NCBI GenBank assembly: GCA_035549255.1
Contig: DASZRD010000005.1
Span: forward strand, 58 to 64,057
DNA from: Minisyncoccota bacterium
GTDB taxonomy: Bacteria; Patescibacteriota; Minisyncoccia; Phycocordibacterales; SBAW01
Direction of reading: 5' to 3'
DNA length: 64,000 nt
Shown one piece after another: positions 2,004-64,000 of this stretch (its first letter is position 1; the number at the start of each line of letters is the position of its first letter). A program made the translations under genes and the position numbers. Below the pieces are notes generated by a model, which saw only the letters and a list, made by a program, of their open reading frames with translations, had not been told where the DNA came from and did not search any database.

Positions 2004-2055
2004 TCCACTATGGTAACATTTCTGCTATGATGGCGGTACACAAATCTAAATTTAT

Positions 2056-2848: not shown

Positions 2849-3167
2849 TCGCGCTCGCAAGCCGCACGGCAAGGTTGAGGAATTCTCGCCGTTTGATAAG
2901 GCGAGGCTCAACAACGGCGTGCCCGACCTCAATGAGCAGTTCTGCAATATCCTGCTTGTCGAGGTTGAGAAGCGCATCGCCAGGCGTGAAGAAGCCGAAA
3001 GCGCCATGGAGTTTGTTCTTGATCTCAATGGAGTTGGAGATCCAGACCGGCGCCATGCGTACAAAAGCTTCTTCGGCCACACCTGGGCCGCGCGCAGGCG
3101 CAATAGAATAAAGGATCGGGACGCGCGAGAGTTCGCCCCGGTCGACGAGGACGGTAATCAGCAATGA
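2841..3167 (+). CDS. hypothetical protein (108 aa), translationally coupled to the upstream small gene
   Basis: ATG at 2841 overlaps the preceding stop. No recognisable family. The antisense track ORF 2808..3164(-) is the alternative reading. Confidence 0.4.
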   Translation: MSNRARKPHGKVEEFSPFDKARLNNGVPDLNEQFCNILLVEVEKRIARREEAESAMEFVLDLNGVGDPDRRHAYKSFFGHTWAARRRNRIKDRDAREFAPVDEDGNQQ

Positions 3168-37036: not shown

Positions 37037-37292
37037 CTCCGCGGGTAGGACTCGAACCTACAACCAACTCCTTACACATATCCTCTTATTACTAAAAGGT
37101 GTGGACTATATCATCTTCCCAAAGGAAGTTTCGGTATCTAGTCTCTACGGCGCCCTCGCACCATGCGAGGTTCCCACGGTGTTGCCCTCTTTAAAAGTAG
37201 GGGTTCACCGTTATCCCGAAATTATTCAATCCGCCTTGCGGCGAAAGGCTGCCTGTCGACAGGGAGCTGCTCTACCATTGAGCTACCGCGGA
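37037..37292 (-). tRNA. tRNA-Asn (anticodon GUU) interrupted by a group I intron in the anticodon loop
   Basis: Exon 1 (37292..37259): acceptor TCCGCGG, D-arm GCTC-AATGGTA-GAGC, anticodon stem GCTCC, loop CUGU. Exon 2 (37074..37037): UAA, GGAGU, variable loop, T-arm GTAGG-TTCGAGT-CCTAC, acceptor CCGCGGA, discriminator G. The spliced loop CUGUUAA matches tRNA-Asn; U1-A72 and G73 also fit Asn. Confidence 0.75.
37075..37258 (-). mobile_element. group I self-splicing intron (184 nt, Azoarcus-like subgroup IC3) within tRNA-Asn
   Basis: Conserved core: P7 strands GUAGAGACUAGAU (R, identical over 12 nt to the Azoarcus pre-tRNA-Ile intron) and AAGAUGAUAUAGUCC (S); P3/P4-like AAUUUCGGGAUAACGG; P2 hairpin CGCC-GCAA-GGCG. 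The 5' exon ends in U, which pairs with a G of the internal guide GCAG; the intron ends in G. Confidence 0.75.
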
Positions 37293-37309
37293 ATGTGACG
37301 AACGTAAAA

Positions 37310-42767: not shown

Positions 42768-42862
42768 GAGTGATTAATTAATGTATAAAAGACCGGTACT
42801 GGGAGTATACCGAAAACCCTTTTCTCTGGGAATACCCCTTATACACCCCCGCTGCGCCTTCA

Positions 42863-42891
42863 TTGACACTACAGATTCCTCCCCACACAAT
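42863..42891 (+). promoter_or_regulatory. sigma70 promoter TTGACA-17-CACAAT; predicted leaderless mRNA for the hybrid kinase
   Basis: TTGACA 42863..42868, -10 at 42886..42891, ATG at 42898. Confidence 0.45.
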
Positions 42892-42897
42892 GTCCTC

Positions 42898-47341: not shown

Positions 47342-48508
47342 ATGAACAACGCACTGGGAGCAGCAACATTGATAGCAGGGGTCGCGGTCGGCGGCATGGG
47401 CCTCGTCGCCGCCTTTATCGCGATTGCTTGCGGGATCGTGACGCTCTTGTGGTGGTGGCTGCGGGAACACAAGCGGCCGCTCTCGCTGCGCCGCTTCAAT
47501 CAGAACCCGATCCTCGGCCCTGACCCCAGCCACTGGTGGGAATCAGAGGCGGTATTCAATCCTGCGGCGTTCACCGCCGACGGGAAGGTGCACATCCTCT
47601 ACCGCGCCATGGGGCGCGACGGCATTTCGCGCATCGGCTACGCTTCGAGCGAAGACGGCGTTCGCTTTACCCGCTTGCCGTATCCGGTCTACTCGCCCGA
47701 CCGGGGCTTCGGGGTCCCGAGGACCGATCGCGTCTACGGGCCGCTCTCCTACAGCCAGACGCACTACGCCTCCGGCGGCGGATGGGGCGGCATCGAGGAC
47801 CCGCGGGCCATCAAGATCGACGGCAAGCTCTACATGAGCTTCGTCGCCTTCGACGGTTGGGGCTTCGTGCGCATGGCGCTTACCTCGATGCCGCTGCCGA
47901 AGTTCCTCAACAAAGACTGGCAATGGAAGAAAGCGGCGTTCCTTTCGCCGCCGAACGAGATCCACAAGAACTGGGTCCTCTTCCCCGAGCGCGTGGGCGG
48001 CAGGTATGCGGTGCTCCACAGCATTACGCCGAAGATCTCGATCGAGTACGTCGATTCGCTCGAGAGCTTCGACGACGAGGATACCTATATCCACTCTCCT
48101 GGCCGCTCGGGCGGCAGGCCCGGGGAGTGGGATAGCATCGTCCGCGGCGCGGGAGCACCGCCGATCAGGACATCGGAAGGATGGCTTCTGCTCTATCACG
48201 GCATGGACGCCAACAATCAGGGTATTGGCTACAAAGTGGGTGCTATGCTGCTCGACCTTGAAGACCCGACCCGCGTGCTCTATCGCAGCTCGCAGCCGAT
48301 ACTGGTCCCGAGCGAATGGTACGAGAATGACTGGAAGCCCGGCGTCATCATCGCGACCGGCGCGGTGGTTATCGGCGACGATCTGATGGTCTACTACGGC
48401 GGCGGCGACAAGTACGTCGCTGCTGCGCGCGCCAATCTGCGCGACTTCCTGCGAAGGCTCAAGTACGACGAGCAGGCCGAGCTCGAGCCGGTGAAGCTCC
48501 AGGTATAA
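47342..48508 (+). CDS. glycoside hydrolase family 130 protein (mannoside phosphorylase-like), membrane-anchored
   Basis: N-terminal TM; GH130 fold motifs (FNPAAF ... ILYRAMG ... GIEDPR ... LLYHG). Confidence 0.8.
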   Translation: MNNALGAATLIAGVAVGGMGLVAAFIAIACGIVTLLWWWLREHKRPLSLRRFNQNPILGPDPSHWWESEAVFNPAAFTADGKVHILYRAMGRDGISRIGYASSEDGVRFTRLPYPVYSPDRGFGVPRTDRVYGPLSYSQTHYASGGGWGGIEDPRAIKIDGKLYMSFVAFDGWGFVRMALTSMPLPKFLNKDWQWKKAAFLSPPNEIHKNWVLFPERVGGRYAVLHSITPKISIEYVDSLESFDDEDTYIHSPGRSGGRPGEWDSIVRGAGAPPIRTSEGWLLLYHGMDANNQGIGYKVGAMLLDLEDPTRVLYRSSQPILVPSEWYENDWKPGVIIATGAVVIGDDLMVYYGGGDKYVAAARANLRDFLRRLKYDEQAELEPVKLQV

Positions 48509-48520
48509 TACACGAGCAAT

Positions 48521-50422
48521 ATGTACGTTATCAGACGCAGCTCGCATAACCCCATCATCACGCCCATGGCCGACCGCCAATGGGAGGCGCGCGGCACGTT
48601 CAATCCCTCACCGGTCAAGAAAGGCCCGATCACGCACATCCTCTACCGCGCGCTCGGCCGCCCCGACGCGCTCATGACGCCCGCGGGTATCTCAACCATC
48701 GGAAAAGCACTCTCGATTGACGGCAAGCACTTCCAGAACCGCCGCCAATTCATCGTGCCGACCGAGGAGTGGGAAAAATTCGGCTGCGAGGACCCGCGCG
48801 CCACGTTCTTCGAAGGCAAATATTATATCTTTTATACCGCCCTCGGCGGTATGCCCTTCGGGGCGGGCAATATCAAGGTTGCGTGCGCGATATCGAAGGA
48901 TCTCGAGTCCATCGATGAGAAGCATCTCATCACCCCGTTTAACGCCAAGGCGATGGCGCTCTTCCCCGAGCGCGTGGGCGGCAAGATCACCGCGATCGTG
49001 ACCGCGCACACCGACGAGCCGCCCGCGAAGATTTCTATCGTGCAGTGCGACAAGATCGAAGATCTGTGGGATCTCGCCTTCTGGGAGAAGTGGCACGCCA
49101 ACCTCGACGATCACCGCATCAACCCCTTGCGGTTCGACCATGACCACGTCGAAGTCGGCTCCGCGCCGATCTGGACCAAGGACGGCTGGCTGATCTTCTA
49201 CTCGTACATCCAAAATTACTTCGGCGGCGGGGAGCGCGTGTTCGGCATCGAGGCGCTGCTGCTCGACCTCGACGACCCGCGGCAGATCGTCGGCCGCACG
49301 AAGGGCCCCATCATGGTCCCGGAAGAGATTTACGAGCGCTACGGCGAGGTCCCCAATATCGTCTTTCCTTCCGGCGCGCTGCTCAACAAGAACGGCCGCG
49401 TCGATATCTACTACGGCGGCGCGGACACGGTCTGCGCGCGCGCTTCTCTTAATCTCCCCGACCTCCTCTCGGCGATGATACCCTCGCGCCGCGAAGACTT
49501 GGCCGTCCGCGCCAAGGAGAATCCGATCCTCTCGCCTATCCCCGACCATGCGTGGGAGAGCAAAGAGGTCTTCAACGCCGCCGCGATCGACATCGACGAG
49601 ACCGTGCATATCCTCTATCGCGCGATCGGCGAAGACGGGGTTTCGCGCGTGGGCTATGCCACGAGCAAAAACGGCATCAAGATTACCGAGCGCCTCCCGG
49701 AGCCTATCTACGGGCCGCGCGCCGACTTCGAATCGCGCGGCTGCGAAGACCCTAGAGTGACCCGCATCGGCACTACTATATATATGGTCTATACCGCCTT
49801 CGACGGGAAGAACCCTTGGCGCGCGGCCATGACCTCGATATCGGTCAAGGACTTTCTCGCGCGCAAATGGGACAAATGGGCGCCGCCTCAGCTCATCACC
49901 CCCGACCCGGTGCAGGACAAGGACACGTGCATCTTCCCCGAGCAGATCGGCGGGCAGTACATGCTGCTCCACCGCATCGACCCCATGATGTGCGCGGATT
50001 TCCTCGATACGCTCGACTTTACGAAGAGCAGGCTCTCGCGCTGCATCGAGATTATGGGTCCGAGAGCGGGCATGTGGGATAGCAAAAAGATCGGCGTCGC
50101 CGGGCCGCCGATCGAGACTTCCAAAGGCTGGCTTCTGATCTACCACGGCGTATCGAAGACCGGCACCTACCGGCTCGGCGCAGTGCTGCTCGACGAGAAA
50201 AACCCCTCGATCGTGATCTCGCGCAGCGTCGACACCATCTTCGAGCCGATCGAGGAGTACGAGCGTACGGGCGTCGTCAACAACGCGGTCTTCTCCTGCG
50301 GCGCGGTCGTGCGCGGCGACACAATGTACGTCTATTACGGCGGTGCGGATACGGTACTTGGCGTCGCCAAGATCTCCCTCAAGAAACTCCTCAAGATTTT
50401 GCTCCCAGAGAACCTCGAGTAA
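48521..50422 (+). CDS. tandem GH130-domain protein (two mannoside-phosphorylase-like modules)
   Basis: Two repeats each carrying FNP..V..ILYRA.G, CEDPR, GWL.IYHG and YYGGAD blocks. Confidence 0.85.
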   Translation: MYVIRRSSHNPIITPMADRQWEARGTFNPSPVKKGPITHILYRALGRPDALMTPAGISTIGKALSIDGKHFQNRRQFIVPTEEWEKFGCEDPRATFFEGKYYIFYTALGGMPFGAGNIKVACAISKDLESIDEKHLITPFNAKAMALFPERVGGKITAIVTAHTDEPPAKISIVQCDKIEDLWDLAFWEKWHANLDDHRINPLRFDHDHVEVGSAPIWTKDGWLIFYSYIQNYFGGGERVFGIEALLLDLDDPRQIVGRTKGPIMVPEEIYERYGEVPNIVFPSGALLNKNGRVDIYYGGADTVCARASLNLPDLLSAMIPSRREDLAVRAKENPILSPIPDHAWESKEVFNAAAIDIDETVHILYRAIGEDGVSRVGYATSKNGIKITERLPEPIYGPRADFESRGCEDPRVTRIGTTIYMVYTAFDGKNPWRAAMTSISVKDFLARKWDKWAPPQLITPDPVQDKDTCIFPEQIGGQYMLLHRIDPMMCADFLDTLDFTKSRLSRCIEIMGPRAGMWDSKKIGVAGPPIETSKGWLLIYHGVSKTGTYRLGAVLLDEKNPSIVISRSVDTIFEPIEEYERTGVVNNAVFSCGAVVRGDTMYVYYGGADTVLGVAKISLKKLLKILLPENLE

Positions 50423-50453: not shown

Positions 50454-51233
50454 ATGAACTTCAAGCCAAAACTCGTCGCGTTCGACCTCGACGGCACGCT
50501 TGCGGAGAGCAAGCGCCCGATTACCGCCGAGGTTGGCGAGCTCCTCACCGAATTGCTCCAGAAGCTGCCAGTCGCTATCATGTCGGGCGCCTCATTTGAG
50601 CAATTCCAGACGCAGGTCTTGCCGCAGATACCCGAGACGGCGCGCTTTGAGCGCCTCTACCTGTTCCCGACCAACGCCGCGCAGTGCTACATACACCGCG
50701 GATCAGGATGGCACCTCGCATATGATCGCTCGTTCAACAGCTTCGAGAAGGGGCGCATCATGCAGGCGCTCAAGGAGGCTCTCGCGGAGCAGGGCCTCGG
50801 GGACGAGTCGGCGCATCCGCAGGAATGGGGGCCGAGGATCGAGGATCGCGGCGCGCAGATCGCCTTCTCCGCGCTGGGGCAGAAAGCGCCCGTTGACCAA
50901 AAGCAGCTCTGGCATGACGCGCACGAATCCGAGCGCAAGGCGCTGCGCGACTCTCTTGCGCGGCGGCTACCCGACTTCTCGGTGCTCGAGGGCGGCCTCA
51001 CGACCGTCGATATCACCCAGAAGGGCGTCGACAAGGCCTACGGCATCCGCAAGCTCGTCGAGCTTGCCGACGTATCGGTTTCCGAGATGCTGTATGTCGG
51101 CGACGCGCTCGAAGAAGGCGGCAATGACTCGGTCGTCATCGATACGGGCGTACACACCCACGAGGTATTCGGCCCCGACGAGACTATTGCCCTCATCAAC
51201 AGCGTTCTTGACGCTCCGCGCGCCGGCCGTTAA
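50454..51233 (+). CDS. HAD-IIB phosphatase/mutase of the eukaryotic-type phosphomannomutase family
   Basis: FDLDGTL, VDITQKGVDKAYGI (like PMM DVFPKGWDKTY), GDALEEGGNDSVV (like PMM GD..GGNDYE). Confidence 0.75.
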   Translation: MNFKPKLVAFDLDGTLAESKRPITAEVGELLTELLQKLPVAIMSGASFEQFQTQVLPQIPETARFERLYLFPTNAAQCYIHRGSGWHLAYDRSFNSFEKGRIMQALKEALAEQGLGDESAHPQEWGPRIEDRGAQIAFSALGQKAPVDQKQLWHDAHESERKALRDSLARRLPDFSVLEGGLTTVDITQKGVDKAYGIRKLVELADVSVSEMLYVGDALEEGGNDSVVIDTGVHTHEVFGPDETIALINSVLDAPRAGR

Positions 51234-53232: not shown

Positions 53233-54522
53233 CTAATCTCTCCCAGTACCCGGCTCAACCGTGTAGGACTTGAGCGTATGCGGTGAAGCGTACGGGTTCG
53301 GGTCCCACGTCTCGAAGCCGACCGTACCCGAATTCTGCAGGCTCGGGAGATCGGCGGCGAGCACCACTTGCCCGCCGATGAGGCACGACAACCGGCTGCC
53401 TTCGATATCGGCGCCCATATCGACACCCTCCCACGGGGAATCCTGGCGTACGGGAAGACTCGGCGATTGAGATATGAATTGCGAGACGCCGTTTGATACC
53501 TGATAAATCTGCACAGTCTGGCCGTAGCGCGAGAACGCGCACGAGGCGAAGTTGCCATCGTCGCGCATGCGCACCAGACGCGAGAAGACGCTTGTGAGGC
53601 CCCAGTCGACCGTCGTATCGACTTTATAATCGACCCAGTCCTTGCCGCCGCGGAACATGGTCATCGAGCCGGTGGTGCTCGCGGCGGCGGAGGGGCCGGT
53701 CTCGATAGAGCCGCTCTCCCCCGGCCCGAAGAAGCCGAAATACGTAAACCACTTGTCGAGAGAATCCGACGACGGAGAGAAGGTATATGGAAGCGTCGCG
53801 GGCGTGGCGGTCGCGAAGGGGTCGAAGGGCTGCGGCCCGGTCGCGACCGGCGGGTACCAGGGGGAATGAGGCGCATCCGAAGAGACCAGGCGTACTTCGT
53901 CGATATAGGCAGACCCCGGATTCTCCGCGCTCACGCTGAACCCAGTGAGCTCTTGGGGGGTCGTGGAACCGACGGAGAAATTGGCGAGCGGGACGGTAAT
54001 CTGCTGCCACTCCCCGGGCGCCAGCGCGCCCGACGCGGCATACCACGAGAGGGACTGGCGGCCGATCGAATTGCCCTGCGCGTCGTAGATATCGAGATAA
54101 AGGTCCCCCACTGCCGCATCGGGGCGGACATACAGCGAGATCGCGCTATACGGCGCCGCATCGGCCGCTGGCCCCTGCATACCGACGCTCCCGCCGGCCG
54201 CGTCGAAGGCCGCCTTGATCGACGCCGGCCCGGCGGCATACTCATCAGTCGCGCGCCAATTGGCGCTCGCGTGCCAAGTCCAGCTATCGTAGCGCAGCGG
54301 CAGCGCATCCTGGTAAAAATAGCCCGAATTAAGCGATACAGCGCCTGAGAGAAGCGATGAGGCGAAAGGATCTCGGCCGCTCTGGTACGAAACGCCCAGC
54401 GCCGCGAGCAAGTCCCCCGGCTGCGTGCGCACATAAAAGAGCGAGAGCGCCGAGGCGATGCCCGCGAGCGCCACGGCGAAGAATGCGCACCAGACTATTC
54501 TCCAAAAGCGGTCGACAATCAT
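53233..54522 (-). CDS. hypothetical membrane-anchored extracytoplasmic protein, between the synthase and the secreted deacetylase
   Basis: N-terminal TM then a 400-aa beta-rich domain; 4-nt overlap with the upstream gene, so likely co-transcribed. Confidence 0.65.
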   Translation of the reverse strand: MIVDRFWRIVWCAFFAVALAGIASALSLFYVRTQPGDLLAALGVSYQSGRDPFASSLLSGAVSLNSGYFYQDALPLRYDSWTWHASANWRATDEYAAGPASIKAAFDAAGGSVGMQGPAADAAPYSAISLYVRPDAAVGDLYLDIYDAQGNSIGRQSLSWYAASGALAPGEWQQITVPLANFSVGSTTPQELTGFSVSAENPGSAYIDEVRLVSSDAPHSPWYPPVATGPQPFDPFATATPATLPYTFSPSSDSLDKWFTYFGFFGPGESGSIETGPSAAASTTGSMTMFRGGKDWVDYKVDTTVDWGLTSVFSRLVRMRDDGNFASCAFSRYGQTVQIYQVSNGVSQFISQSPSLPVRQDSPWEGVDMGADIEGSRLSCLIGGQVVLAADLPSLQNSGTVGFETWDPNPYASPHTLKSYTVEPGTGRD

Positions 54523-57083
54523 AATAAGGTAGGCCGGGCCTCGGTCGGCGCAATCGAAGCGGAGGTCTCGGCGGTACGCGCCTCATCCGGAATAAGCGAG
54601 GCGTGCAGAGCGCCCGGAAGCTGCGGGGAGACCTCCGCGATCGTAAGCGGGGACGGGACCGGCACGAGGATGTCGCTTTGATAGAACCGCTTCGTCTCCC
54701 CCGCCTTGCGGAACTTATTCCAGCCCGCGCCGCTGCCCTCGATCGCGCGGATGACGCCGCGCATGACACTAAAGTAGAGAAGCTGCCGGTAGACCACCCG
54801 CTGCAGGGGCACGCCGATCATGAGGCGGCCCGCGCCGGGCTCCTTCCAGACGCCCCAGGCGGCATAGGCCATGTCGAAGGCGGTAAATAAGAGGAACGGC
54901 ACGAGAAGCGTGCGCATCTGGCCGAAAAGGAGGCCGAATACGAACGCCGCGTCAGTGAAGGGGTACGCGAGCGGCAGCAGGATATTGTAGATAAACACGT
55001 TGGGAAGCACGATAAGGGTCATGGGCGAGAACGGCCGCTCGAGCGCGACGCGCTTGTGCTTCCAGACGCATTGCATGGTGCCATAGACCCAGCGGAAGCG
55101 CTGCTTGAGGAAATTCTTTACCGTATGCGGCGTCTCGGTGTAGGCGATGGCCTGCGGCTCATAGACGACGCGCTTTCCCGAGCGCAGCACGGTGAGCGTC
55201 ATGTCCTGGTCCTCGACCAGCGTATCGGTCGAAAAGCCACCGAATTGCATGAGATACGACTTGCGCCACGCGCCCGCGGGCCCGGGCACGATGCCGACCG
55301 CGCCGATAGTCGAGAACGCGCGCTTGTCGATGTTCTGGCCGATCGCGTATTCGAGGGTCTGGAAAATGTCGAGCATGCGGCGGCTGCCCGTGGTGCGGAC
55401 CTTCCCCGCGACCGCGCCCACCCGCGGGTCGCTGAAGTGCTTTACGAAGTGCGCGAGCGCCCGGCGCTCAAGCACAGCGTCGGCGTCGAGAACCGCGATG
55501 ATATCGTACTTCGCGTGCTTGATGCCGATATTGAGCGCGCGGGCCTTGCCGCCGTTCTCCAGGCTCATGAGGCAGATATCGTCGTGCGGATATGCCTCGA
55601 TGACGTTGCGGACTTCCTGCGCGGTTTTGTCATATGAGCCATCGTCGAGCACGATAATCTCGCGCTTGGGGTACGAGCTGCGAATGACGCTCTCGACGGT
55701 CGCGGCGATATTCTCCTCCTCGTTATAGGCGGGGATAAGCACGGATACGCCTGCGACCTCGCGCACCTCGGGAATGATCTCCTTATAGAGGCCGCGCATG
55801 CGGCCGTACATGATGAGCGAGATGAGCGACAGCGAGCGGACGCCGACAAGCGCGAGCGTGAAGATCGCGAGCCCCATAAGGCCGCGGTAGATGATCGGGA
55901 AGAAATATATATAGAGGCTGCGCATGGCTTCGCCCAGCCCCAAGAGCGCGATGACCGCCCATGCGCTCCAGCCCGCGGCCGCCCCAGGGGCGGCCGCGGG
56001 CGCCGCTGCGAGCGCGGACTCGAGCGACATCGAGTGGATAAGGTTGCGGGTCGCCTGGTCGGCCTTGCCGGCGCGGGACGGGTCGGGGTTGCCCGAATCG
56101 ACAAGCTTGTTGGCGGTCTGAAAGTTGAGCAGCGCCGCGCGCGTCGCTGCGTCGAATACGCCGGTAAGCGCGTACGGGTCGAGGTACTTCTGCATATAAA
56201 GGAACCATTGGAGCTGCGATACCGCGCCGCCGGTTGTGGCATCAGTCGCGCCGAGCGCAAGCGTCGAAGGAAGCGAGATCGTCGTAGGCGGCGTCAGGAG
56301 CGAGGAGAGCGGCACGACGCTGTAGCCGTGGTCTTTGAGATAGCCGAGAATCGCAGGCAGGGCCTTGGCGGTCGCCACGTCCTCATGAAGGAGGATGATG
56401 TGGCCGTTGGGTTTCTCCGCAAGCGCGCGGTCAAGGTCAGCGACCATTTGCGGCGTCGTAGTCGCATACCACTTGGTCGGATCGATGTCGGCACCCACCG
56501 GCAGATACCCGAGCTCGAGGGACCACAGGAGGTCTTTGGGCGGCGGCACATAAGGGTTGAGGGTCGGGTCGGACCCGACGCCGGAGAGATACGGCGGACG
56601 GTAGAAGAGCGGCTGCTGCCCCGTGATCTGCGAGATAAGATACCCGGTCGAGTTGAGCTCGAGCGCAAGGCGCTTGTAGGAAGACTGCGCGTCCCGGGCA
56701 TGCGTGAAGGAAAGGTTCCCGACCGTAAAGCCGTCATCGCTCGCCTCCTTGACCAAGTCGGGCCGCGTGAGCACATCCTTTCCTATATAGAAGAACGTTG
56801 CCGGCACACCCTCCTTCGATAGTTCGTTGAAGAAGAGCTGCGACGCATCGGGCGTCGGACCGTCGTCTATCGTGAGCGCGACCTTGTCGGCATTCGCCGC
56901 GCTGAAGTAGTAGTGATAGCGCTCGGCGATATCCGCATACGGAAGCGAGGCGCGCCCGGCGGTAGTGCTCGCGAGGCCGAACAAAAAAATAAGAACGAAC
57001 GAAAGGAGAAAGAATATGAAAAAGACCGCAGCGGCCCTGAAATATAGTTTGCGTCGTTTAGAGGTATCGAAAAATACAGGCAT
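54519..57083 (-). CDS. fused polysaccharide deacetylase (NodB) / peptidoglycan-binding domain / processive family-2 glycosyltransferase (PgaC/IcaA-like synthase)
   Basis: N-terminal TM; NodB (ALTIDDGPT, HIILLHED); PG_binding_1-like (AVSQLQWFLYMQKYL...GVFDAATRAALLNFQ); TM block; GT2 (VLIPAYNEEENI, DADAVLE, QRFRWVYG = QxxRW); C-terminal TMs. Confidence 0.85.
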   Translation of the reverse strand: MPVFFDTSKRRKLYFRAAAVFFIFFLLSFVLIFLFGLASTTAGRASLPYADIAERYHYYFSAANADKVALTIDDGPTPDASQLFFNELSKEGVPATFFYIGKDVLTRPDLVKEASDDGFTVGNLSFTHARDAQSSYKRLALELNSTGYLISQITGQQPLFYRPPYLSGVGSDPTLNPYVPPPKDLLWSLELGYLPVGADIDPTKWYATTTPQMVADLDRALAEKPNGHIILLHEDVATAKALPAILGYLKDHGYSVVPLSSLLTPPTTISLPSTLALGATDATTGGAVSQLQWFLYMQKYLDPYALTGVFDAATRAALLNFQTANKLVDSGNPDPSRAGKADQATRNLIHSMSLESALAAAPAAAPGAAAGWSAWAVIALLGLGEAMRSLYIYFFPIIYRGLMGLAIFTLALVGVRSLSLISLIMYGRMRGLYKEIIPEVREVAGVSVLIPAYNEEENIAATVESVIRSSYPKREIIVLDDGSYDKTAQEVRNVIEAYPHDDICLMSLENGGKARALNIGIKHAKYDIIAVLDADAVLERRALAHFVKHFSDPRVGAVAGKVRTTGSRRMLDIFQTLEYAIGQNIDKRAFSTIGAVGIVPGPAGAWRKSYLMQFGGFSTDTLVEDQDMTLTVLRSGKRVVYEPQAIAYTETPHTVKNFLKQRFRWVYGTMQCVWKHKRVALERPFSPMTLIVLPNVFIYNILLPLAYPFTDAAFVFGLLFGQMRTLLVPFLLFTAFDMAYAAWGVWKEPGAGRLMIGVPLQRVVYRQLLYFSVMRGVIRAIEGSGAGWNKFRKAGETKRFYQSDILVPVPSPLTIAEVSPQLPGALHASLIPDEARTAETSASIAPTEARPTLL

Positions 57084-57245
57084 ACAGCCGAGACAGCATT
57101 GTTGCTGCGGCTGGTTCCCCCGGTTATGCGGTTATTGCGCACGCATACTGGATGATGCGCGCACACCAAAAGTATAGCGCATATCGCAGAGGTGTATAGC
57201 GTAAACCGGTGTGGAAATCAGAATCGTATATATTGGAGTACAGAT

Positions 57246-57325
57246 ATAAAAAAGAACAAGGTCGAGGCGGGCCCAAAACCCTGGGAAACCAGCCATAAGC
57301 TGGAGCTTTTGGGCCCACCTCGACC
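57246..57325 (-). promoter_or_regulatory. intrinsic-terminator-like hairpin inside the 5' leader of the synthase gene (candidate attenuator/riboswitch expression platform)
   Basis: 19-bp inverted repeat GGTCGAGGCGGGCCCAAAA / TTTTGGGCCCACCTCGACC (one mismatch) at 57260..57278 and 57307..57325, followed on the minus strand by TTGTTCTTTTTTAT. Lies about 165 nt upstream of the synthase ATG and is preceded by a second hairpin plus U-run (57359..57390). Confidence 0.45.
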
Positions 57326-57623
57326 TCGTATCTTTTGGAAGAACGCCTTCCCGTAAAAACAAATCGAAGCTCTTCTTCGGAGTAAAGAGCTTCGCCGCGC
57401 ATACTACTCGAGGCAGATTTCTTGTATAGATTGTCAGCGCAAAATTTTCGTCGCCGAATGTCGCGTGAGAGTTGCGAAAATAAAAATTTGTATCGCGCTA
57501 TCGCACGTCTCTTGTAATTTGAAATGCGCGTGCTATTTTGCCTCCTACCAAAGCAGCTCTGGGAAACTGCCGTGGGACGTGTTTTTCTCTTGTCCTTTAT
57601 TCATTAGGTATTAACCAGAGCTT

Positions 57624-60600
57624 ATGTCTCTCATTAAAGAGGGCGCGCTCGCGCGCCTGGGACGTGCTGTGTTCTCTCTTACTAACGTTCGTGCAAGCGG
57701 ATTGGTCGTGTCCGCGCTTTTTGCATTGGCAGTTGTCGTAGCGCCGACCGCAGCAATGGCTGCAACATTCACCAGCATTACTGCATCCGATGCTTCAGGT
57801 ACTTATGGAGGAACAGTAAACCTTTCCGCAACTCTACAATATTATTCTGGTGGTTTTCACGCACTAACCGGAAAAACAGTCACGTTCAAACTCAATGGAA
57901 CGACAGTTGGTGCTACTACTACTGACAGTAGCGGTAAAGCAACTCTAAATAACGTCAGTTTGAGTGGCATTAACGCAAATACCTATAATTCTGGAGTCTC
58001 AGCAAGCTTTGCGGGTGATTCTACCTATTCATCAGATAGTGATACTTCAAAACTCACGGTCTCGAAGGCTAACCCGACCCTCTCGGTAACAAACTCCCCG
58101 CAGGCTTACACTGGCTCGCCTATTGCGGCGGCAGTGAGTGGCTCGGTTGCTGGCACAGTAAGCAATGTAAAGTACAACAACTCGTCAACAGTTCCCACAA
58201 ACGCAGGAACGTACCCGATTACCGCAAGCTTTGCGCCGACCGACACCACCAACTACAACTCTCTCTCAAGCGCCTCAGCTGGTAGCTTTGTCATCACCGG
58301 CGCTCCTACCAAGGCAAATACACTTACTGTTATTACCTCCGACACGCCGGATCCTTCGAATACGAATGCGGCTTACACGGTCAACGTGAGCGTCGGGCGC
58401 CTCTCTGGTACCAATAGCCCGAGCGGCACCGTAACGGTATCGGATGGCTCGGCGACTTGCGCCGCTACCCTCTCCGGCTCTTCGGCAACCACGACCGGCT
58501 CCTGCCAGCTCACCTCAACTACGTCTGGCTCCAAGACGCTTACGGCGACGTACAGCGGCGATACCAACTTCAATACGAGCTCGGGCACCGCGTCGCACAC
58601 GGTTAATAACGTCGCAGGTCCTGACTGCAGCAACTTCGTCGACCTCGCACACAACCTTATTAACAATCCCTGCCTTGAAACCGGCTCTGCATGGAATGGC
58701 ACGACCGGCGGCCCCGATAACTGGTCCTTCTATTCTGCAGGCGTTACGGGCGGCGCGACATATCCGGCCACGTCGTACCATTCGGGTACGGGTGCAGCCG
58801 AGGTTCATATAAGCGCGATCAATTCCCCTGCCGATCCGAATAATCCTCCGCAGGCGCAATGGGGATTCAATCCAGTCAACAACATTACTCCAGGCGCCAA
58901 TTACCAGTTCAGCTTCTGGTACAACTCCAACGTCGATAGCGAAGTAGACGCCGAGTACGACACGGCGAGCGGCCCGATCTACACGCAAGTGCGCTCCAAC
59001 CTCCCATCGACCAATGGCGCATGGGTGCAGTTCACGACGAACATCATCCCGCCGGCCGGAACGACAGCGATGTCTATAACGCCGCTTATCAGCAAGGTCG
59101 GCAATCTCACGGTCGACGACTTCTCGCTTGTGCAGGAAGCCGATCCCAATGCCTTTGCGACGGGCATGGTATCGCTCAACTTCGATGACGGCCTTGCAAG
59201 CTTCTGGAATTACGCGACCAGCACGCTCAACGCGGCGGGCATCAAGGCGACCGAATACATCATTACCGGCGCATCCGGCAGCGATGTGACAAATCCCAAT
59301 CCGAGCAGCGGCTACCTCTCGCGCACGCAGATTCAGGCACTCGCTGCAGCGGGTTACGACATTGGCGACCACACCACCGACCATGCCGACCTCACCAACC
59401 TGAGCTCGGGCCAGACGCTTACCTCCGAAATAAATAACTCGGTAGCGGCGCTCAACAATATCGGCATCTCGTCCGTCAGCACCATCGCTTATCCGTACGG
59501 AACATACAATCAGGCGGTTGAAAGCCAAGTGCTGCATGTTCCGCTTCTTGCGGGCCGCAGCGTCGATGACGGCTTCAATGACAAGAAGACTGATCCATAT
59601 GCTCTGCGCATCAAGGAAGTCTTCGATACAACATCAGTATCACAAGTAGAAAGCTGGATTGATGAGGCTAATGCGAATAATGAGTGGCTGATCCTGCTCT
59701 TCCACACCGTGGACAAAGACAGTGCAAACGGCCTGGATTGCACCAGCGGTACGCCTAACACCAACAATCCTCAGGAGTGCGTCACCACTGCCAATCTCCA
59801 GGCGATTGTAAGCCACCTCAACAGCACCCACACGCACACCGTTACCATGTCGCAAGGCATCGGGATCATGAACGGCACCTCCGTCATCGATCAGACTGCG
59901 CCGACCGTCACTGTTCCTTCGAACATAAGCGTTCCCGCAACGTCGCAAGCCGGCGCAACCGTAACCTTCTCCGTCACAGCAACCGATAATATCGACCTCA
60001 ACCCTTCGATCCTCTGCATGCCGGCATCGGGCTCGGTATTCGCGTTCGGGACCACGACAGTCGGCTGCTCGGCCACAGACGCGAGCGGCAATAAGTCTGC
60101 TACTTCGACCTTCGACGTAGGCGTCTATAAGCCGACCCTTACTATCACCGCCGACAATCAAACAACAACCTTCGGCTATACCACTGAGCCCACATACACT
60201 GTTACGATTACCGGCTTCCAGGGTACCGATGATGCAACTGTTCTTACAACGCAGCCGACCTGCTCGGTCGCGGTTGATCACAGTGCGGTCGGCACCTACC
60301 CGATCACTTGTTCCGGGGCGGCCGATACCGACGGCATCTACGTATTCAATTACGTAAATGGCACGCTCACGGTCGCGCCGGTAGATGGCACGGTGGTGCT
60401 GAACAATCTCACCCAGACCTATGACGGCACGCCTAAGGCGGTCGCAACCTCGACTGGCGATGTCGTACTCTCGGTTACCGTTACATACGCGGGCACGGGC
60501 GGCACAACCTACGCGCTCTCGACGGTGCCTCCGACCGATGCGGGTACCTATGACGTGGTCGCAACCATCGACGCGGGCCAGAGCTACAGCGGCTCGGCCG

Positions 60601-62411
60601 AAGGCACACTCACAATCGCCAAGGCGGCGGTCGACGGGGCAGAGAGCCTCAACCAGTCTATCGATGTCGTTGAGAATTCGACCAACAATCCGATCACGCT
60701 CGGCACGCTCGACTCGCTCACTTCGCCCGCATGGACGATCGCGACGCAGCCGACCAGCGGCACGATCGGCGGCACCGCTCCGGCGGTCACGTATACGCCG
60801 GCGGCGGACTTCTACGGCAGCGACTCATTCTCCTTCACGGTCGGCGACGCCAACCACGTAAGCGGCACCGCCACGGTGAATATCATGGTGCACCCGGCTC
60901 CGGGCTGCCCGAGCGGCTACACTGCTAACGGCACCGGCGGCTGTGACCCGGCCAATACAACGGTACCGGTCGTCTGCCCCAACGGCACGGCGTACAACGC
61001 CACCGACAATATGTGCGAGGATACTCAGACTTCGGTTGCGCCGACCGACACGCTCACCTGCCCTGATGGATCGACGCTCGACGGCACCCAGTGCGACACG
61101 ACGACCACGACGACCCAAAGCCCGACCTGCGGCGACGGCAGCGAGTTCTCCTACGACGCCGACAACAATACCTGCGTCCCGACCGACCCGAACGATACGA
61201 CCACGCCTCCGTCCCCGACATGCGCGCAGGGCATGCTCAACGGACAGAACCAGTGCGAGGTCGACACAACTACGCAGACCCCAGCCCAGGACAACCTTAC
61301 CTGCCCCGACGGCTACACGCTCAACAGCAACGAGTGCGACCCGGCACCGATCGCCCCGACTGCGCCGACTTGCCCGGCCAACTCGACCGACAACGGTGAC
61401 GGCACGTGCGCCACGCAGACGATCGCCCTGCAGTGCATTACGGGCTACCATCTCGACGACGCCACCGGCATGTGCGATGCCGACGTGCTCTATGCCATCA
61501 CCGCTTCGACGGGAGACAACGGCTCCATCAGCCCTTCGGGCTCGGTCTCGGTCGTCGAGCACGCGTCGCAGAGCTTCTCTATTGCGGCCAACTCCGGCTA
61601 CCACATTAGCGACGTAGTGGTCGATGGCTCATCGGTCGGCGCGGTCTCAAGCTACAGCTTCTCTGACATCGGCGCGGACCATACGATCTCGGCATCCTTC
61701 GCGCAGGATGCGGCCCCGGCAGCAGTCGGCGGCGGCGGAGGTGGCGGAGGCGGTGGCATCCTCTACTACGGCAATGTGTCCATCAATAATGGCGCGGCCG
61801 AGACCAGCTCGCCGAACGTGACACTCACCGTCACGGCGACCGGGGGCCTCAGCCAGGTATGGCTCTCCAACGATTCTTCCTTCTCGACCGGCACCTGGCA
61901 GCCGATCCAGAGCCCCATCCAGTGGACGCTTGCGTCGGGCGCAGGTCAGAAGACCATCTATGCCCGCTTCGGCATCGCAAGCAGCACGTATGCCAACGCG
62001 CAGGCGAGCATCCAGCTGACCTCCGGCGGCGTTGTCCTTGGCGCATCGATCCAGATCCTCACTGACGCGCAGATCGCCGCGATCCTCAACCTTCTCACCT
62101 CGTTCAACGCCGACCAGTCCGTCATCGACTCGGTCAACGCGGCGCTCCATGGCGAAGCGACAAGCGGCACTGGCGGCAGCGCGACCTCAGACGGGTTCGT
62201 CTTCACACAGACCCTCCAGGTAGGCTCGACCGGCAACCAAGTCACCGAGCTCCAGAAGCGCCTTACGGCCGAAGGCGTCTACTCGGGACCGATCACCGGC
62301 TACTTCGGAGCACTCACCAAGGCAGGCGTCATCGCTTACCAAGCGAAGAAGGGTCTTCCGCAAGTTGGCATTGTAGGACCGATGACGCGCGCAGCGCTCA
62401 ACGGGCAATAA
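57624..62411 (+). CDS. giant multidomain surface protein (1595 aa): Ig-like repeats, NodB polysaccharide deacetylase, HYR domain, Cys-pair tandem repeats, poly-Gly, C-terminal peptidoglycan-binding domain
   Basis: Signal/TM anchor; Big-like domains; NodB (SLNFDDGL, DIGDHTTDHAD); HYR-like (APTVTVPSNISVPATSQAGATVTFSVTATD...); six CP.G-x-C Cys-pair modules; GGGGGGGGG; PG_binding_1 (GSTGNQVTELQKRLTAEGVYSGPITGYFGALTKAGVIAYQ). Confidence 0.9.
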   Translation: MSLIKEGALARLGRAVFSLTNVRASGLVVSALFALAVVVAPTAAMAATFTSITASDASGTYGGTVNLSATLQYYSGGFHALTGKTVTFKLNGTTVGATTTDSSGKATLNNVSLSGINANTYNSGVSASFAGDSTYSSDSDTSKLTVSKANPTLSVTNSPQAYTGSPIAAAVSGSVAGTVSNVKYNNSSTVPTNAGTYPITASFAPTDTTNYNSLSSASAGSFVITGAPTKANTLTVITSDTPDPSNTNAAYTVNVSVGRLSGTNSPSGTVTVSDGSATCAATLSGSSATTTGSCQLTSTTSGSKTLTATYSGDTNFNTSSGTASHTVNNVAGPDCSNFVDLAHNLINNPCLETGSAWNGTTGGPDNWSFYSAGVTGGATYPATSYHSGTGAAEVHISAINSPADPNNPPQAQWGFNPVNNITPGANYQFSFWYNSNVDSEVDAEYDTASGPIYTQVRSNLPSTNGAWVQFTTNIIPPAGTTAMSITPLISKVGNLTVDDFSLVQEADPNAFATGMVSLNFDDGLASFWNYATSTLNAAGIKATEYIITGASGSDVTNPNPSSGYLSRTQIQALAAAGYDIGDHTTDHADLTNLSSGQTLTSEINNSVAALNNIGISSVSTIAYPYGTYNQAVESQVLHVPLLAGRSVDDGFNDKKTDPYALRIKEVFDTTSVSQVESWIDEANANNEWLILLFHTVDKDSANGLDCTSGTPNTNNPQECVTTANLQAIVSHLNSTHTHTVTMSQGIGIMNGTSVIDQTAPTVTVPSNISVPATSQAGATVTFSVTATDNIDLNPSILCMPASGSVFAFGTTTVGCSATDASGNKSATSTFDVGVYKPTLTITADNQTTTFGYTTEPTYTVTITGFQGTDDATVLTTQPTCSVAVDHSAVGTYPITCSGAADTDGIYVFNYVNGTLTVAPVDGTVVLNNLTQTYDGTPKAVATSTGDVVLSVTVTYAGTGGTTYALSTVPPTDAGTYDVVATIDAGQSYSGSAEGTLTIAKAAVDGAESLNQSIDVVENSTNNPITLGTLDSLTSPAWTIATQPTSGTIGGTAPAVTYTPAADFYGSDSFSFTVGDANHVSGTATVNIMVHPAPGCPSGYTANGTGGCDPANTTVPVVCPNGTAYNATDNMCEDTQTSVAPTDTLTCPDGSTLDGTQCDTTTTTTQSPTCGDGSEFSYDADNNTCVPTDPNDTTTPPSPTCAQGMLNGQNQCEVDTTTQTPAQDNLTCPDGYTLNSNECDPAPIAPTAPTCPANSTDNGDGTCATQTIALQCITGYHLDDATGMCDADVLYAITASTGDNGSISPSGSVSVVEHASQSFSIAANSGYHISDVVVDGSSVGAVSSYSFSDIGADHTISASFAQDAAPAAVGGGGGGGGGGILYYGNVSINNGAAETSSPNVTLTVTATGGLSQVWLSNDSSFSTGTWQPIQSPIQWTLASGAGQKTIYARFGIASSTYANAQASIQLTSGGVVLGASIQILTDAQIAAILNLLTSFNADQSVIDSVNAALHGEATSGTGGSATSDGFVFTQTLQVGSTGNQVTELQKRLTAEGVYSGPITGYFGALTKAGVIAYQAKKGLPQVGIVGPMTRAALNGQ
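60904..61487 (+). repeat. tandem array of about six ~30-codon Cys-pair modules (CPxGxxLDGTxCD-like) inside the giant gene
   Basis: Repeated at protein and DNA level (CPSGYTANGTGGCD, CPNGTAYNATDNMCE, CPDGSTLDGTQCD, CGDGSEFSYDADNNTC, CAQGMLNGQNQCE, CPDGYTLNSNECD, CPANSTDNGDGTC, CITGYHLDDATGMCD). Confidence 0.7.
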
Positions 62412-62568: not shown

Positions 62569-63264
62569 ATGCACTTACTTATCGTAGAAGACGAAGAGAA
62601 GCTGGCGAAGGCCTTGCAGAAGGGCCTCACCATGAAAGGGTTCGCCGTCGACTGGCTGCCCGACCCGGAGAAGGCGCGCAACCGCATTCTCCTCTACAAA
62701 AACGAGTATGACCTCATACTGCTCGACCTCATGCTCCCCGGCCTCGACGGGGCGACCATCACCGAGGACGTGCGCAAGGCCAACGTCACGACGCCGATCA
62801 TTATCCTGACCGCGCGCAACGAGACCGAGCACAAGGTCGATCTTCTCAATAAGGGTGCCGACGACTATATCGTGAAGCCCTTCTCCTTCGAGGAGCTCCT
62901 GGCGCGCATCAACTCCGTCCTGCGCCGCCCGACCGTGGCGCAAGCGACCATACTCAAGGTGGGCCCGCTCGAGATGGATACGGCCGCGCGCGTGGTGCGC
63001 CGCGACGGCAAGGAGGTGCCGCTTACGCTCAAAGAATTCTCGCTCCTCGAGTGCTTCATGCGCGAGCCGGGCGTCGTGCTCTCGCGCGAGAAGCTCTTCG
63101 ACCATGTGTGGGACTTCAACGCGCTCTCCTGGAGCAACGTGCTTGACGTGCATATGAAAAATCTTCGTAAGAAACTGAACAATGAAGACGATAACGGCGA
63201 TCAACGACTATTTGAGACAGTTCGAGGCGTGGGCTACCGCTTGGCGGGAGAAGTACGAAGCTGA
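62569..63264 (+). CDS. OmpR/PhoB-family response regulator
   Basis: Receiver (LLIVEDEEKLAKAL ... LILLDLMLPGLDG ... K102-like VKPF) and winged-helix C-domain (ETVRGVGYRL). Track coordinates used. Confidence 0.9.
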   Translation: MHLLIVEDEEKLAKALQKGLTMKGFAVDWLPDPEKARNRILLYKNEYDLILLDLMLPGLDGATITEDVRKANVTTPIIILTARNETEHKVDLLNKGADDYIVKPFSFEELLARINSVLRRPTVAQATILKVGPLEMDTAARVVRRDGKEVPLTLKEFSLLECFMREPGVVLSREKLFDHVWDFNALSWSNVLDVHMKNLRKKLNNEDDNGDQRLFETVRGVGYRLAGEVRS

Positions 63265-64000
63265 TATCTTCCTGCGCGCAGCCGTGTCGATCACCGTCCT
63301 ACTCTCGGGGCTCGTGATTGGGTGCGTCGTTCTCTTCTGGATCGTCCTCAACGAAACCAATACGGCGGTCGTGCATGCCATCGTCGATAACATCCAGGCG
63401 ATTGTCGCGGGCGGCAGCCCCAGTACGACCCTCACCACCTCGATCAATTCGATCCAGGGCGAGTCGGTGGGCTCCGTCTTCCTCGGGCTCGTGGTCATGG
63501 CGGTCATCTTCGGGTGGCTCTTCACGCGCTTTATGCTGGAGCCCACGCGCAATACGCTCCACTATCAGAAACTCTTCATCAGCAACGTAGCGCACGAACT
63601 GCGCACCCCGCTCTCGGTCATCAAGACATCGACCGAGGTAGCACTCATGGACGACGCGATCGCGCCCGCCATGCGCGACACACTGGGCGACATCGTGCGC
63701 CAGCTCGACCGCATCTCCGAGATCATCAACAATCTTCTCTCGCTCAACTCCTATAACCGCCCCGAGCGTATGCAGCTCCATAGCGTGCATGTGGGAGACT
63801 TGGTCGCCGCGGCCGTAGGTCGCCTCGAAGCCCTTGCGCGCGAGCGCGGGGTCGAGGTCGCCATCTCGGTCGATAGCGTCGACGTCGTCTGGGGCAACGC
63901 CACCGGCCTCGAGCAGGTCATCGGAAACCTCATCAAGAACGCGATCAGCTATACGCAGAAGGACTCGGGCGGGCGGGTCGTGGTCGAAGTGCACCCAGAC
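63182..64000 (+). CDS. sensor histidine kinase, 3' end runs past the window (start uncertain: ATG 63182 overlapping the regulator by 83 nt, or GTG 63284)
   Basis: Manual translation of the frame running to the window end: TM helices then H-box FISNVAHELRTPLSVIKTSTEVAL. Not in the ORF track because no stop codon occurs before position 64000. Confidence 0.7.
   Translation, partial: MKTITAINDYLRQFEAWATAWREKYEADIFLRAAVSITVLLSGLVIGCVVLFWIVLNETNTAVVHAIVDNIQAIVAGGSPSTTLTTSINSIQGESVGSVFLGLVVMAVIFGWLFTRFMLEPTRNTLHYQKLFISNVAHELRTPLSVIKTSTEVALMDDAIAPAMRDTLGDIVRQLDRISEIINNLLSLNSYNRPERMQLHSVHVGDLVAAAVGRLEALARERGVEVAISVDSVDVVWGNATGLEQVIGNLIKNAISYTQKDSGGRVVVEVHPD

Follow-up and report, generated by a model that had tools for sequence, protein, structure and literature searches.

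Which RNA do the hairpins between two divergent envelope genes of a Candidatus Paceibacterota bacterium belong to, and what do they control? This question is raised by a 540-nt intergenic region in a stretch of 64,000 nt from this member of the candidate phyla radiation (CPR), the whole of which is called the window here. On one side of the region lies a gene for a polysaccharide synthase (minus strand) and on the other side the gene for a giant surface protein (plus strand), and a domain scan found both flanking genes as the first-pass annotation of this DNA had described them. That annotation had read the hairpins as a riboswitch or attenuator in the synthase leader. Our preferred answer, to which we give an even chance, is that they are a conserved base-pairing small RNA (sRNA) that would relieve inhibitory leader structures of both envelope genes. 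As an RNA motif the element is new, its mechanistic kind is known, and it belongs to no Rfam family.

Bacteria of the CPR (Patescibacteria) have tiny genomes and few regulators, and their attachment to hosts depends on the cell surface. To our knowledge regulatory RNAs are essentially undescribed in this group and its gene regulation is almost unknown; the literature searched contained no report of a comparable motif from Patescibacteria or Parcubacteria. The motif is absent from Rfam 15, and its exact boundaries are now available together with a covariance model and 22 distinct examples. Flanked by the synthase and giant-protein genes and next to those of a two-component system, this co-variation-backed RNA device represents a testable handle on envelope control. 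A wider form of the proposal is put forward tentatively: the hairpins may represent an sRNA family of CPR (Paceibacteria), probably controlled by a two-component system, whose terminator hairpin mimics a translation start and would turn on two divergent envelope genes simultaneously (elsewhere a gene for a Gly-rich surface protein) by capturing anti-start boxes. If true, this would be the first sRNA regulon that we know to have been proposed for these uncultivated bacteria with reduced genomes.

Structure and conservation of the hairpins

On the minus strand the elements follow each other in the order P1 (a promoter-like site), hairpin HP1, a small hairpin, hairpin B, a second promoter-like site (P2), hairpin H5, box C within hairpin T2 and finally the ATG of the synthase gene (Table 1). 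HP1 (10–11 bp) and B (arms of 19 nt) are real hairpins on the synthase strand and both are terminator-like with a U-run behind them, as originally claimed. The arms of B (GGTCGAGGTGGGCCCAAAA, 57325..57307, and TTTTGGGCCCGCCTCGACC, 57278..57260) form 18 Watson-Crick pairs and one U.G pair, i.e. the near-perfect 19-bp repeat with an internal hairpin that had been noticed, and the following U-run ends 162 nt upstream of the ATG. With its G+C-rich stem of about -58 kcal/mol and the subsequent UUGUUCUUUUUU, B has the typical features of an intrinsic terminator in the window. A U-run behind B is also present in L001, L084, L113, L120, L115 (U7), L123 (U-rich) and L092 (loci of relatives are designated by L numbers throughout). 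HP1 is followed by the U-run ATTTGTTTTT (AUUUGUUUUU at 57364..57355) and is retained in L001, L084, L085, L097, L113 and L120, and L002 and L109 show different hairpin-plus-U-run sequences in its place. The small hairpin appears in both the minimum-free-energy and the centroid fold and is conserved in L001, not in remoter relatives. The entire 540-nt region folds 7.1 standard deviations better than dinucleotide shuffles and the 153-nt stretch 57398..57246 folds 8.6 standard deviations better than shuffles, and the arm sequence of B is unique within the window (0.01 matches expected by chance).

An exact look-up of the window synthase gave no match and relatives were reached via homology search instead; a protein 100% identical to the window synthase carries the annotation Candidatus Paceibacterota. 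Synthase homologues in Paceibacterota show 45–88% identity, and the closest genomic relatives are metagenome-assembled genomes of Candidatus Paceibacterota with synthases of 88% (L001) and 54% (L002) protein identity. The intergenic region of L001 is 86% identical overall and 100% identical across the ~100 nt spanning B, and in L002 the inner part of B is kept together with an outer stem that is different and compensating, with no U-run behind it. B is found as well in the loci of synthase homologues with 45–69% identity (L109/110, L111/112, L113, L115-118, L119, L120, L121 and L123). Scanning of metagenomes for a pattern of 19 nt taken from the 3' half of B gave 14 further instances besides 14 chance matches. 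As 19 nt of the seed region are fixed by the search itself in these 14 loci, the unbiased evidence is that of the ten protein-derived lineages, which agree on the conserved inner helix and bulge. Altogether B recurs in 22 further distinct loci with one copy each.

The covariance model built for the element (R1) gives 88.9 bits on the sense strand of the window and 40.3 bits on the antisense strand; across loci the scores are ~80–96 bits in sense and ~40 bits in antisense orientation, with exactly one copy per locus, and a search with R1 found no second copy in the 64-kb window. Over the 22 distinct B sequences 93.2% of cells are paired (controls with slid partners reach at most 57%), changes on both sides occur in 18 of the 29 pairs, and none of 500 shuffles attained the observed values on any of five measures. 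The stem GGGCCC, for instance, is replaced by GGAUCC in L115, by GGGCUC/GAGCCC in L123 and by GGGGCC/GGCCCC in L121. In contrast with these freely changing stems the core of inner helix and bulge, (C)UCCAGC-loop-GCUGGUU(U)CCCAG(G/A)G, is near-invariant.

In all loci but L085 hairpin B is positioned ~200–460 nt upstream of a gene on the same strand. Either this gene encodes a deacetylase-GT2 synthase and has the divergent gene of a large surface protein upstream, or it encodes a ~280-aa Gly/Asn/Asp-rich protein with a signal-peptide-like N-terminus that is followed by a large protein (Gly-rich loci); neither the Gly-rich protein nor the large protein after it has a match in Pfam. L119 has a synthase without B and C, and the module stands before a Gly-rich gene 1 kb away. 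Synthase homologues without B exist in L003, L004, L114 and L122, which means that the element is lineage-restricted and not a property of the gene family.

Two other explanations of the conserved sequence were considered and rejected. A dispersed repeat of the REP (repetitive extragenic palindrome) or MITE (miniature inverted-repeat transposable element) kind does not agree with a single copy in the window and one per locus, in the same context throughout. An open reading frame (ORF) of 92 aa (57402..57124) runs over the hairpins and is not conserved: a 1-nt insertion or deletion in the U-run of HP1 breaks it in L001, by which a coding role is ruled out, and another frame extends over B in L084 (frames read by eye).

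Proposed pairing of hairpin B with the leaders of two genes

Upstream of the synthase gene lies box C, a short sequence with the consensus GGGAA(A)CCAGC(C/G) that is complementary to the seed of B. It is present in 22 of the 23 distinct B-carrying loci 131–250 nt downstream of B (19 loci measured). Pairing of C with the 3' half of B (B:C) comprises 11–14 contiguous bp in 19 of the 20 loci tested, with duplex energies of -18 to -28 kcal/mol that are reached by 0–1 of 200 shuffled seeds in the loci tested; L120, L121 and L123 carry box C too. For the window RNAduplex gives -24.1 kcal/mol (0 of 200 shuffled seeds as good). The complementarity is maintained by compensatory change, as would be demanded of an sRNA and its target. 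The flanking pair, G-C in the synthase loci, is replaced by C-G in the Gly-rich loci and by A-U in L115; the internal pair of GCUG[G]UU:AA[C]CAGC goes from G-C via G.U (L097, L108) to A-U (L115); UUU/AAA switches jointly with UU/AA; and extensions of the duplex co-vary as well (UAGG:CCUA in L111, UCCG:CGGA in Gly-rich loci). Internal mismatches number at least six, and every one of them is G.U, not A.C, on the sense strand. Random transitions would be expected to give about half A.C, so that the chance of this pattern is roughly 0.02, and it points to RNA–RNA pairing on the synthase-sense strand and not to a DNA inverted repeat or a protein operator. A reading of the A, B and C boxes as operator of a transcription factor was rejected since B is the complement of the other two boxes on the transcribed strands, with G.U mismatches only; a reading of GGGAAC as the -35 box of an extracytoplasmic-function (ECF) sigma factor was rejected because the spacings do not fit.

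The same data bear on the idea of an invertible promoter, in which GGCTGGTTTCCC of B and box C would be inverted repeats around P2 and a site-specific recombinase would flip the ~170-bp segment between them, turning surface genes on or off (phase variation). Inverted repeats of 11–14 bp (57294..57283 and 57120..57109 in the window) do flank the promoter-like P2 upstream of surface or envelope genes, and their sequences co-vary, yet we hold this idea to be extremely unlikely. One and the same orientation is found in every assembly, i.e. in the ten protein-reached lineages and in the replicates L115-118, L109/110, L002/089 and L101/103, and the mismatches are all G.U on one strand, which is relevant to RNA and not to DNA. 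Moreover, one of the repeats is inside a strand-specific RNA hairpin with 18 co-varying pairs, L085 has a single repeat only, and there is no recombinase among the 17 window proteins scanned (33 to 64 kb).

Box C is at the same time the 5' arm of T2, a hairpin that encloses the start codon of the synthase gene. RNAalifold on six loci gave 15 consensus pairs for T2, five of them with double changes, and the folding energy in the window is -19.7 kcal/mol. The first-pass annotation had suggested an intrinsic terminator between promoter and start codon. This arrangement does exist in the leaders of relatives, where the counterpart of T2 together with a U-run forms an intrinsic terminator (L002, L088, L102, L108, L082, L083, L100, L101 and L119), but the hairpin concerned is T2 and not the one that had been flagged. 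The synthase start region GGCUG-UAUG-CCC resembles GGCUG-GUUU-CCC of B, and likewise the bulge and 3' strand of B (GGCUGGUUUCCCAGGG) resemble this start region. The B:C pairing is nevertheless no by-product of a stem shared by B and T2, since in L115 and the Gly-rich loci the partners within T2 differ while B:C stays at 13–14 bp. In the window, opening of the inner helix of B costs 9.1 kcal/mol, T2 amounts to -19.7 and the B:C duplex to -22.6 kcal/mol (summed by hand); this is near balance, as expected of a switch. RNAcofold with the putative sRNA and either leader predicted neither B:C nor the pairing of B with A' described below, a program that cannot pair inside a closed hairpin.

Several observations on the surroundings of these boxes are added here. 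L114, which like L119 and L122 is a natural variant of the synthase locus, has kept box C (GGGAAACCAGCC, 2960..3000) before the ATG of its synthase; it has no B within 3 kb after a rearrangement by which LexA, DUF2130 and methylase genes were introduced. The upstream regions of the synthase are short in L119 (2888..3000) and L122 (1319..1500) and have no B; box C is absent from the searched region of L119, and none was seen on reading that of L122. In the Gly-rich loci the T2 terminator is followed by another conserved and structured leader, ~170 nt long (L082, 2196..2412; also L083, L100, L101, L092, L107 and L119). It holds GUGAGCUGUAC...GCUCAC and CUGGCAUCACGCUCGCCGUACGGAAGCGGGAUGCCAG, has no match in Rfam and may be a separate regulatory RNA.

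The second complementary site is found on the opposite strand, in the leader of the giant gene. Hairpin A' has a stem that co-varies (GUAG/CUAC in L115, UCGG/CCGA in L102, GUGG/CCGC in L088), and AGCUCUGG of its 5' half pairs with the nucleotides directly before the AUG in the minimum-free-energy fold. Five co-varying versions of this pairing were read by eye, namely AGCUCUGG/CCAGAGCU, GGACUGGG/CCCAGUCC, GCCUGG/CCAGGC, CCUGGG/CCCAGG and GGGAACC/GGUUCCC; MAFFT and RNAalifold on the giant-gene leader gave the local A' stem only because a 1-nt register shift defeated them on the long-range pairs. In the window B and A' form 12 bp according to RNAduplex (13 when a terminal U.G seen by eye is counted) at -19.3 kcal/mol, with 4 of 200 shuffled seeds as good. 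Complementarity of 9–12 bp occurs in 11 of 11 loci having the giant gene, as would be expected of an sRNA target. As the two RNAs derive from opposite strands, this pairing is possible in trans only.

Is the conserved interior of B instead the binding site of a ligand? A search of 56900..57800 against Rfam 15 with cmscan at E<=10 gave no family except chance matches of microRNA or long non-coding RNA type to the long hairpin, which are discounted since any long hairpin yields them. The cyclic di-GMP (c-di-GMP) riboswitch that had been envisaged is thus not borne out: neither RF01051 (c-di-GMP-I) nor RF01786 (c-di-GMP-II) nor another model matched in this search. The whole window contains only a tRNA and a group I intron at Rfam gathering score, and the Gly-rich-gene locus L082 (1880..2430) matched no family at E<=1. 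A riboswitch with terminator-embedded aptamer, in which a small molecule, e.g. c-di-GMP or a sugar nucleotide, would be recognised by the conserved internal loop and bulge of B so as to control termination there, is in our opinion very unlikely. It would account for an inner sequence of B that is far more conserved than pairing demands and for its terminator-like shape, and the HMP-PP (hydroxymethylpyrimidine pyrophosphate) riboswitch can serve as precedent (PMC6478431). However, the unpaired nucleotides that are conserved coincide exactly with those pairing and co-varying with C and A', there is no multi-helix junction and nothing in B that points to a ligand pocket, and the U-run is not conserved. 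In addition, the aptamer of a riboswitch should lie downstream of the promoter of its gene, and the predicted P2 lies downstream of B as well as of HP1.

Predicted transcripts and competing explanations

Promoter-like hexamers are conserved on both sides of B. Hexamers and spacing of P1 recur with variable spacer sequence in the window, L001, L084, L085, L113, L111, L109 and L120; in the Gly-rich loci the same register is occupied by CAATC-TTGGCA-N16-TATGGT and in the L002 group by TTGACA-N17-TACNNT. P2, a sigma-70-like site found by promoter scan, lies between B and C at the same place in all lineages. Its -10 hexamer TATACT is kept in L001, L084, L111 and L109, and equivalents are TTGAAG/TTGAAT-N16-TACAAT (L002, L102, L108), TTTACA-17-TAAACT (L115) and TTGACA-16/17-GATAAT in six diverged Gly-rich loci (L082, L083, L100, L101, L107, L119), of which that of L082 matches the consensus in 11 of 12 positions. 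In Gly-rich loci box C starts 8–9 nt past the -10 hexamer of P2, at the predicted transcript start. Both predicted minus-strand transcripts open with a hairpin at +1, namely HP1 (P1) and H5 (P2); since HP1 begins at the predicted start it is read as 5'-terminal stem-loop of an sRNA, and at the position of H5 different hairpins were seen by eye in L002 and L088. For the giant gene a TAnnnT hexamer stands 11–13 nt before the A' hairpin in the window, L001, L084, L113, L111 and L115; this promoter call is the weakest of the three. A TCCACAGG-like box is conserved ~10–20 nt upstream of the -35 hexamer of P2 (window 57208..57216, minus strand; equivalent position in L084, L111, L109, L002 and L102) and could be a transcription-factor site. 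In L082 a promoter-like TACACA-17-TACAAT (2055..2083, minus strand) is found on the opposite strand between B and P2, facing B.

As the conserved P2 is downstream of both hairpins, these are probably not in the main synthase leader. The first-pass annotation had assumed that they are, and had itself named a synthase promoter downstream of the hairpin as the finding that would speak against it; comparative prediction now places P2 there. Nor does the hairpin unit appear to be a mere part of this leader, as it has a conserved promoter-like site of its own and exists without a downstream target gene in L085. This locus belongs to a close relative, whose response regulator shares 87% identity with that of the window; P1, HP1 and B are all intact in it, but P2, box C and a same-strand gene are absent. 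The unit is situated there between a divergent response-regulator/kinase operon and a convergent UDP-glucose dehydrogenase gene. From this stand-alone copy, B behaves like an independent unit that has remained alongside the two-component system. An OmpR-type regulator and a HisKA kinase are syntenic with the B locus in the window (62569..64000, plus strand), in L085 (573..2244) and in L113 (1..322), where the response regulator is beside the surface-protein gene. The regulator is thus a candidate for the control of P1, possibly via a conserved TGACAATC box, and the adjacent two-component system may drive this promoter. Of what is usually asked of an sRNA gene, i.e. own promoter, terminator and lack of coding capacity, the sequences offer a conserved but predicted P1, a terminator-like 3' end, no conserved ORF and the stand-alone unit of L085.

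The base-pairing sRNA that we favour would work as follows. A gene of ~145 nt (~57394 to 57248, minus strand) would be transcribed from P1 into an RNA with HP1 as 5' stem-loop and the terminator-like B at its 3' end. The conserved bulge of B and its inner 3' strand would lie exposed and serve as decoy for C and A', the two "anti-start" boxes. The synthase mRNA would arise from its own promoter P2 downstream of B, and its box C would fold onto the synthase start region and bury the AUG or, in relatives, act as 5' arm of the intrinsic terminator. The B:C duplex would nucleate at the bulge and extend into the inner helix of 5 bp; it would make the start codon accessible or block the terminator, and so switch the synthase on. 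The seed of B would also pair with the loop of A', which otherwise pairs with the 8 nt before the AUG of the giant gene. Both ends of the proposed RNAs are placed where the predicted promoters and terminators would have them, and we infer that B acts in trans, not on read-through transcripts, and that the effect is activation.

The main rival is a cis attenuator, i.e. the original attenuation idea in corrected form, which we consider unlikely. Read-through from P1 or from further upstream would make 57394..57084 one long leader of four segments, namely CCAGC (1), GCUGGUUUCCC (2), box C (3) and GGCUG.AUG.CC (4). Pairing 1:2 is that within B and pairing 3:4 that within T2; formation of 2:3 instead would make the start codon accessible or, in relatives, keep the T2 terminator from forming. 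The three pairings 1:2, 2:3 and 3:4, corresponding to inner helix of B, B:C and T2, all exist and co-vary, so that of the riboswitch or attenuator control first envisaged an RNA-level device with alternative pairing has stood the comparison, but not the riboswitch. A cis attenuator would also explain why B and C are linked near-constantly at fixed distance, why several lineages have a poor U-run after B and why the energies are close to balance. Against it stands the conserved predicted promoter between segments 2 and 3 in all lineages, with box C of the Gly-rich loci only 8–9 nt behind its -10 hexamer. The U-run behind B is strong in the window, L115 and L123, no leader peptide is conserved across the compared loci, and neither such a peptide nor another obvious sensor overlaps segment 1. 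Finally, the L085 unit lacks segments 3 and 4, and A' can be reached in trans only.

Alternatively, the hairpins could be plain tandem terminators, an insulator that halts stray transcription before P2, and the likeness to C and A' would then reflect sites of a common protein. Two hairpins with U-runs ahead of a promoter fit this description, and in L107, L092 and L119 B is located 18–40 nt behind a same-strand gene and may terminate it. We regard this as distinctly unlikely: ordinary terminators do not keep a 16-nt bulge-and-strand across synthases of 45% identity while their stems change freely, B is complementary and not similar to C and A' with compensatory changes via G.U intermediates, and there is one element per locus, restricted to this gene context.

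Some results weigh against the sRNA proposal itself. All three promoters and both 3' ends are predictions, and P1 of the window scores only 8 of 12, below the threshold of the promoter scan. HP1 with its U-run could terminate transcription just after P1. L002, L083, L101 and L107 have a weak U-run after B or none, so that B may fail to terminate there and would then be part of a long cis leader. In almost all loci B and C are neighbours, which is needless for a freely trans-acting RNA, and in L114 box C occurs with no B close by. One half of the seed is tied up within a hairpin of high stability (-58 kcal/mol), and complementarity of B to A' is statistically modest in each locus (1–26 of 200 shuffles as good). 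The seed invariance in the 14 pattern-derived loci is circular as the search pattern fixed that part.

Features of the locus and comparison with known systems

Table 1. Features in and around the intergenic region of the window. Positions of hairpins, P1, P2, box C and T2 refer to the minus strand, those of the giant-gene leader to the plus strand.
Feature	Position	Strand	Description
Synthase gene	54519..57083	-	ATG at 57083; 854 aa; polysaccharide deacetylase, peptidoglycan (PG)-binding and GT2 domains
T2	57120..57078	-	GGG..CCAGCC[CAGCA-ACAA-UGCUG]GGCUG-UAUG-CC; start codon inside
Box C	57120..57109	-	GGGGAACCAGCC; complement of B seed and 5' arm of T2
H5	57165..57136	-	11-bp hairpin at predicted 5' end of synthase mRNA
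P2	57198..57171	-	TATACA-N16-TATACT; predicted start ~57164
U-run after B	57259..57246	-	TTGTTCTTTTTTAT / UUGUUCUUUUUUAU
Seed of B	57294..57280	-	GGCUGGUUUCCC (57294..57283) versus box C; UGGUUUCCCAGGG (57292..57280) versus A' loop
Hairpin B	57334..57252	-	Variable outer stem, GGGCCC-AAAA stem, inner CCAGC/GCUGG helix, 7-nt bulge UUUCCCA
Small hairpin	57351..57337	-	GGAAG-GCGUU-CUUCC; between HP1 and B
HP1	57394..57365	-	Arms CGAAGCTCTT...AAGAGCTTCG, also written CGAAGCUCUU/AAGAGCUUCG
P1	57433..57401	-	CAATC box, TATACA (57428..57423), 16-nt spacer, TAGTAT (57406..57401); predicted start ~57394
Giant-gene promoter-like site	57512..57539	+	TTGTAA-N16-TATTTT, read from sequence; predicted start ~57546
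A' hairpin	57553..57570	+	GCAG[CUCUGGGAAA]CUGC; loop complementary to B bulge region
Start region of giant gene	57615..57622	+	CCAGAGCU; 8 nt directly before the AUG (57624); pairs with AGCUCUGG of A' 5' half
Giant surface-protein gene	57624..62411	+	Divergent; 1595 aa; Ig-like, MBG, HYR, deacetylase and PG-binding domains
Response regulator	62569..63264	+	OmpR family; 3' of giant gene; candidate upstream regulator of the locus
Histidine kinase	63182..64000	+	HisKA; after response regulator; truncated by window end

Further genes of the window are mentioned for completeness. Two GH130 mannoside phosphorylase-like genes (47342..50422) and a phosphomannomutase-like gene (50454..51233) adjoin the envelope locus, and a hybrid MASE1 histidine kinase with receiver domain is encoded at 42781..44982 (plus strand). 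At 37040..37296 (minus strand) a tRNA gene is apparently split by a group I intron (RF00028 at 37082..37272, 50.1 bits versus a gathering score of 50); the exon halves around it read TCCGCGGTAGCTCAATGGTAGAGCAGCTCCCT and AAGGAGTTGGTTGTAGGTTCGAGTCCTACCCGCGGAG, and ARAGORN made no call of that tRNA.

The closest known mechanisms are those of anti-antisense activating sRNAs (DsrA and RprA on rpoS) and of attenuators with alternative pairing. In the rpoS leader of E. coli the sRNAs DsrA, RprA and ArcZ pair with the upstream arm of an inhibitory hairpin and thereby free the translation start, and RprA is driven by an envelope-sensing two-component (Rcs) system. The B RNA resembles them in its proposed own promoter and terminator and in its proposed target, the upstream arm of an inhibitory leader hairpin. 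It differs from them in that its seed is within bulge and inner helix of the terminator hairpin itself, that the inhibitory element is a start-codon trap or an intrinsic terminator depending on the lineage, and that it is encoded between its two proposed divergent targets, in a CPR host. With trp-type attenuators the locus shares four segments with mutually exclusive pairings, of which 3:4 is a terminator before the gene in relatives. In contrast with them, segments 2 and 3 are 130–250 nt apart with a conserved promoter-like site in between and no leader peptide, and in the window 3:4 hides the start codon rather than terminating.

The countertranscripts of pT181, pIP501 and pAMbeta1 are true antisense RNAs of the same DNA and induce termination. 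Here as there a small RNA acting on a nascent leader would decide on terminator formation, with recognition from an exposed loop, whereas B is encoded upstream on the same strand, has only 11–14 nt in common with its target and would keep the inhibitory hairpin from forming. Short inverted repeats around the promoter of a surface gene are a feature in common with fimS and the capsule invertons of Bacteroides, from which the locus is distinguished by its single orientation, its strand-specific G.U mismatches and a repeat within a co-varying RNA hairpin. The position upstream of an exopolysaccharide synthase is reminiscent of c-di-GMP-I and c-di-GMP-II riboswitches (RF01051, RF01786), the architecture is not. 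The HMP-PP (thiS) riboswitch, a terminator-embedded aptamer (PMC6478431), likewise has conserved nucleotides inside the stem of an intrinsic terminator; unlike there, the conserved nucleotides of B are explained by pairing with C and A', and the predicted promoter is located downstream of them.

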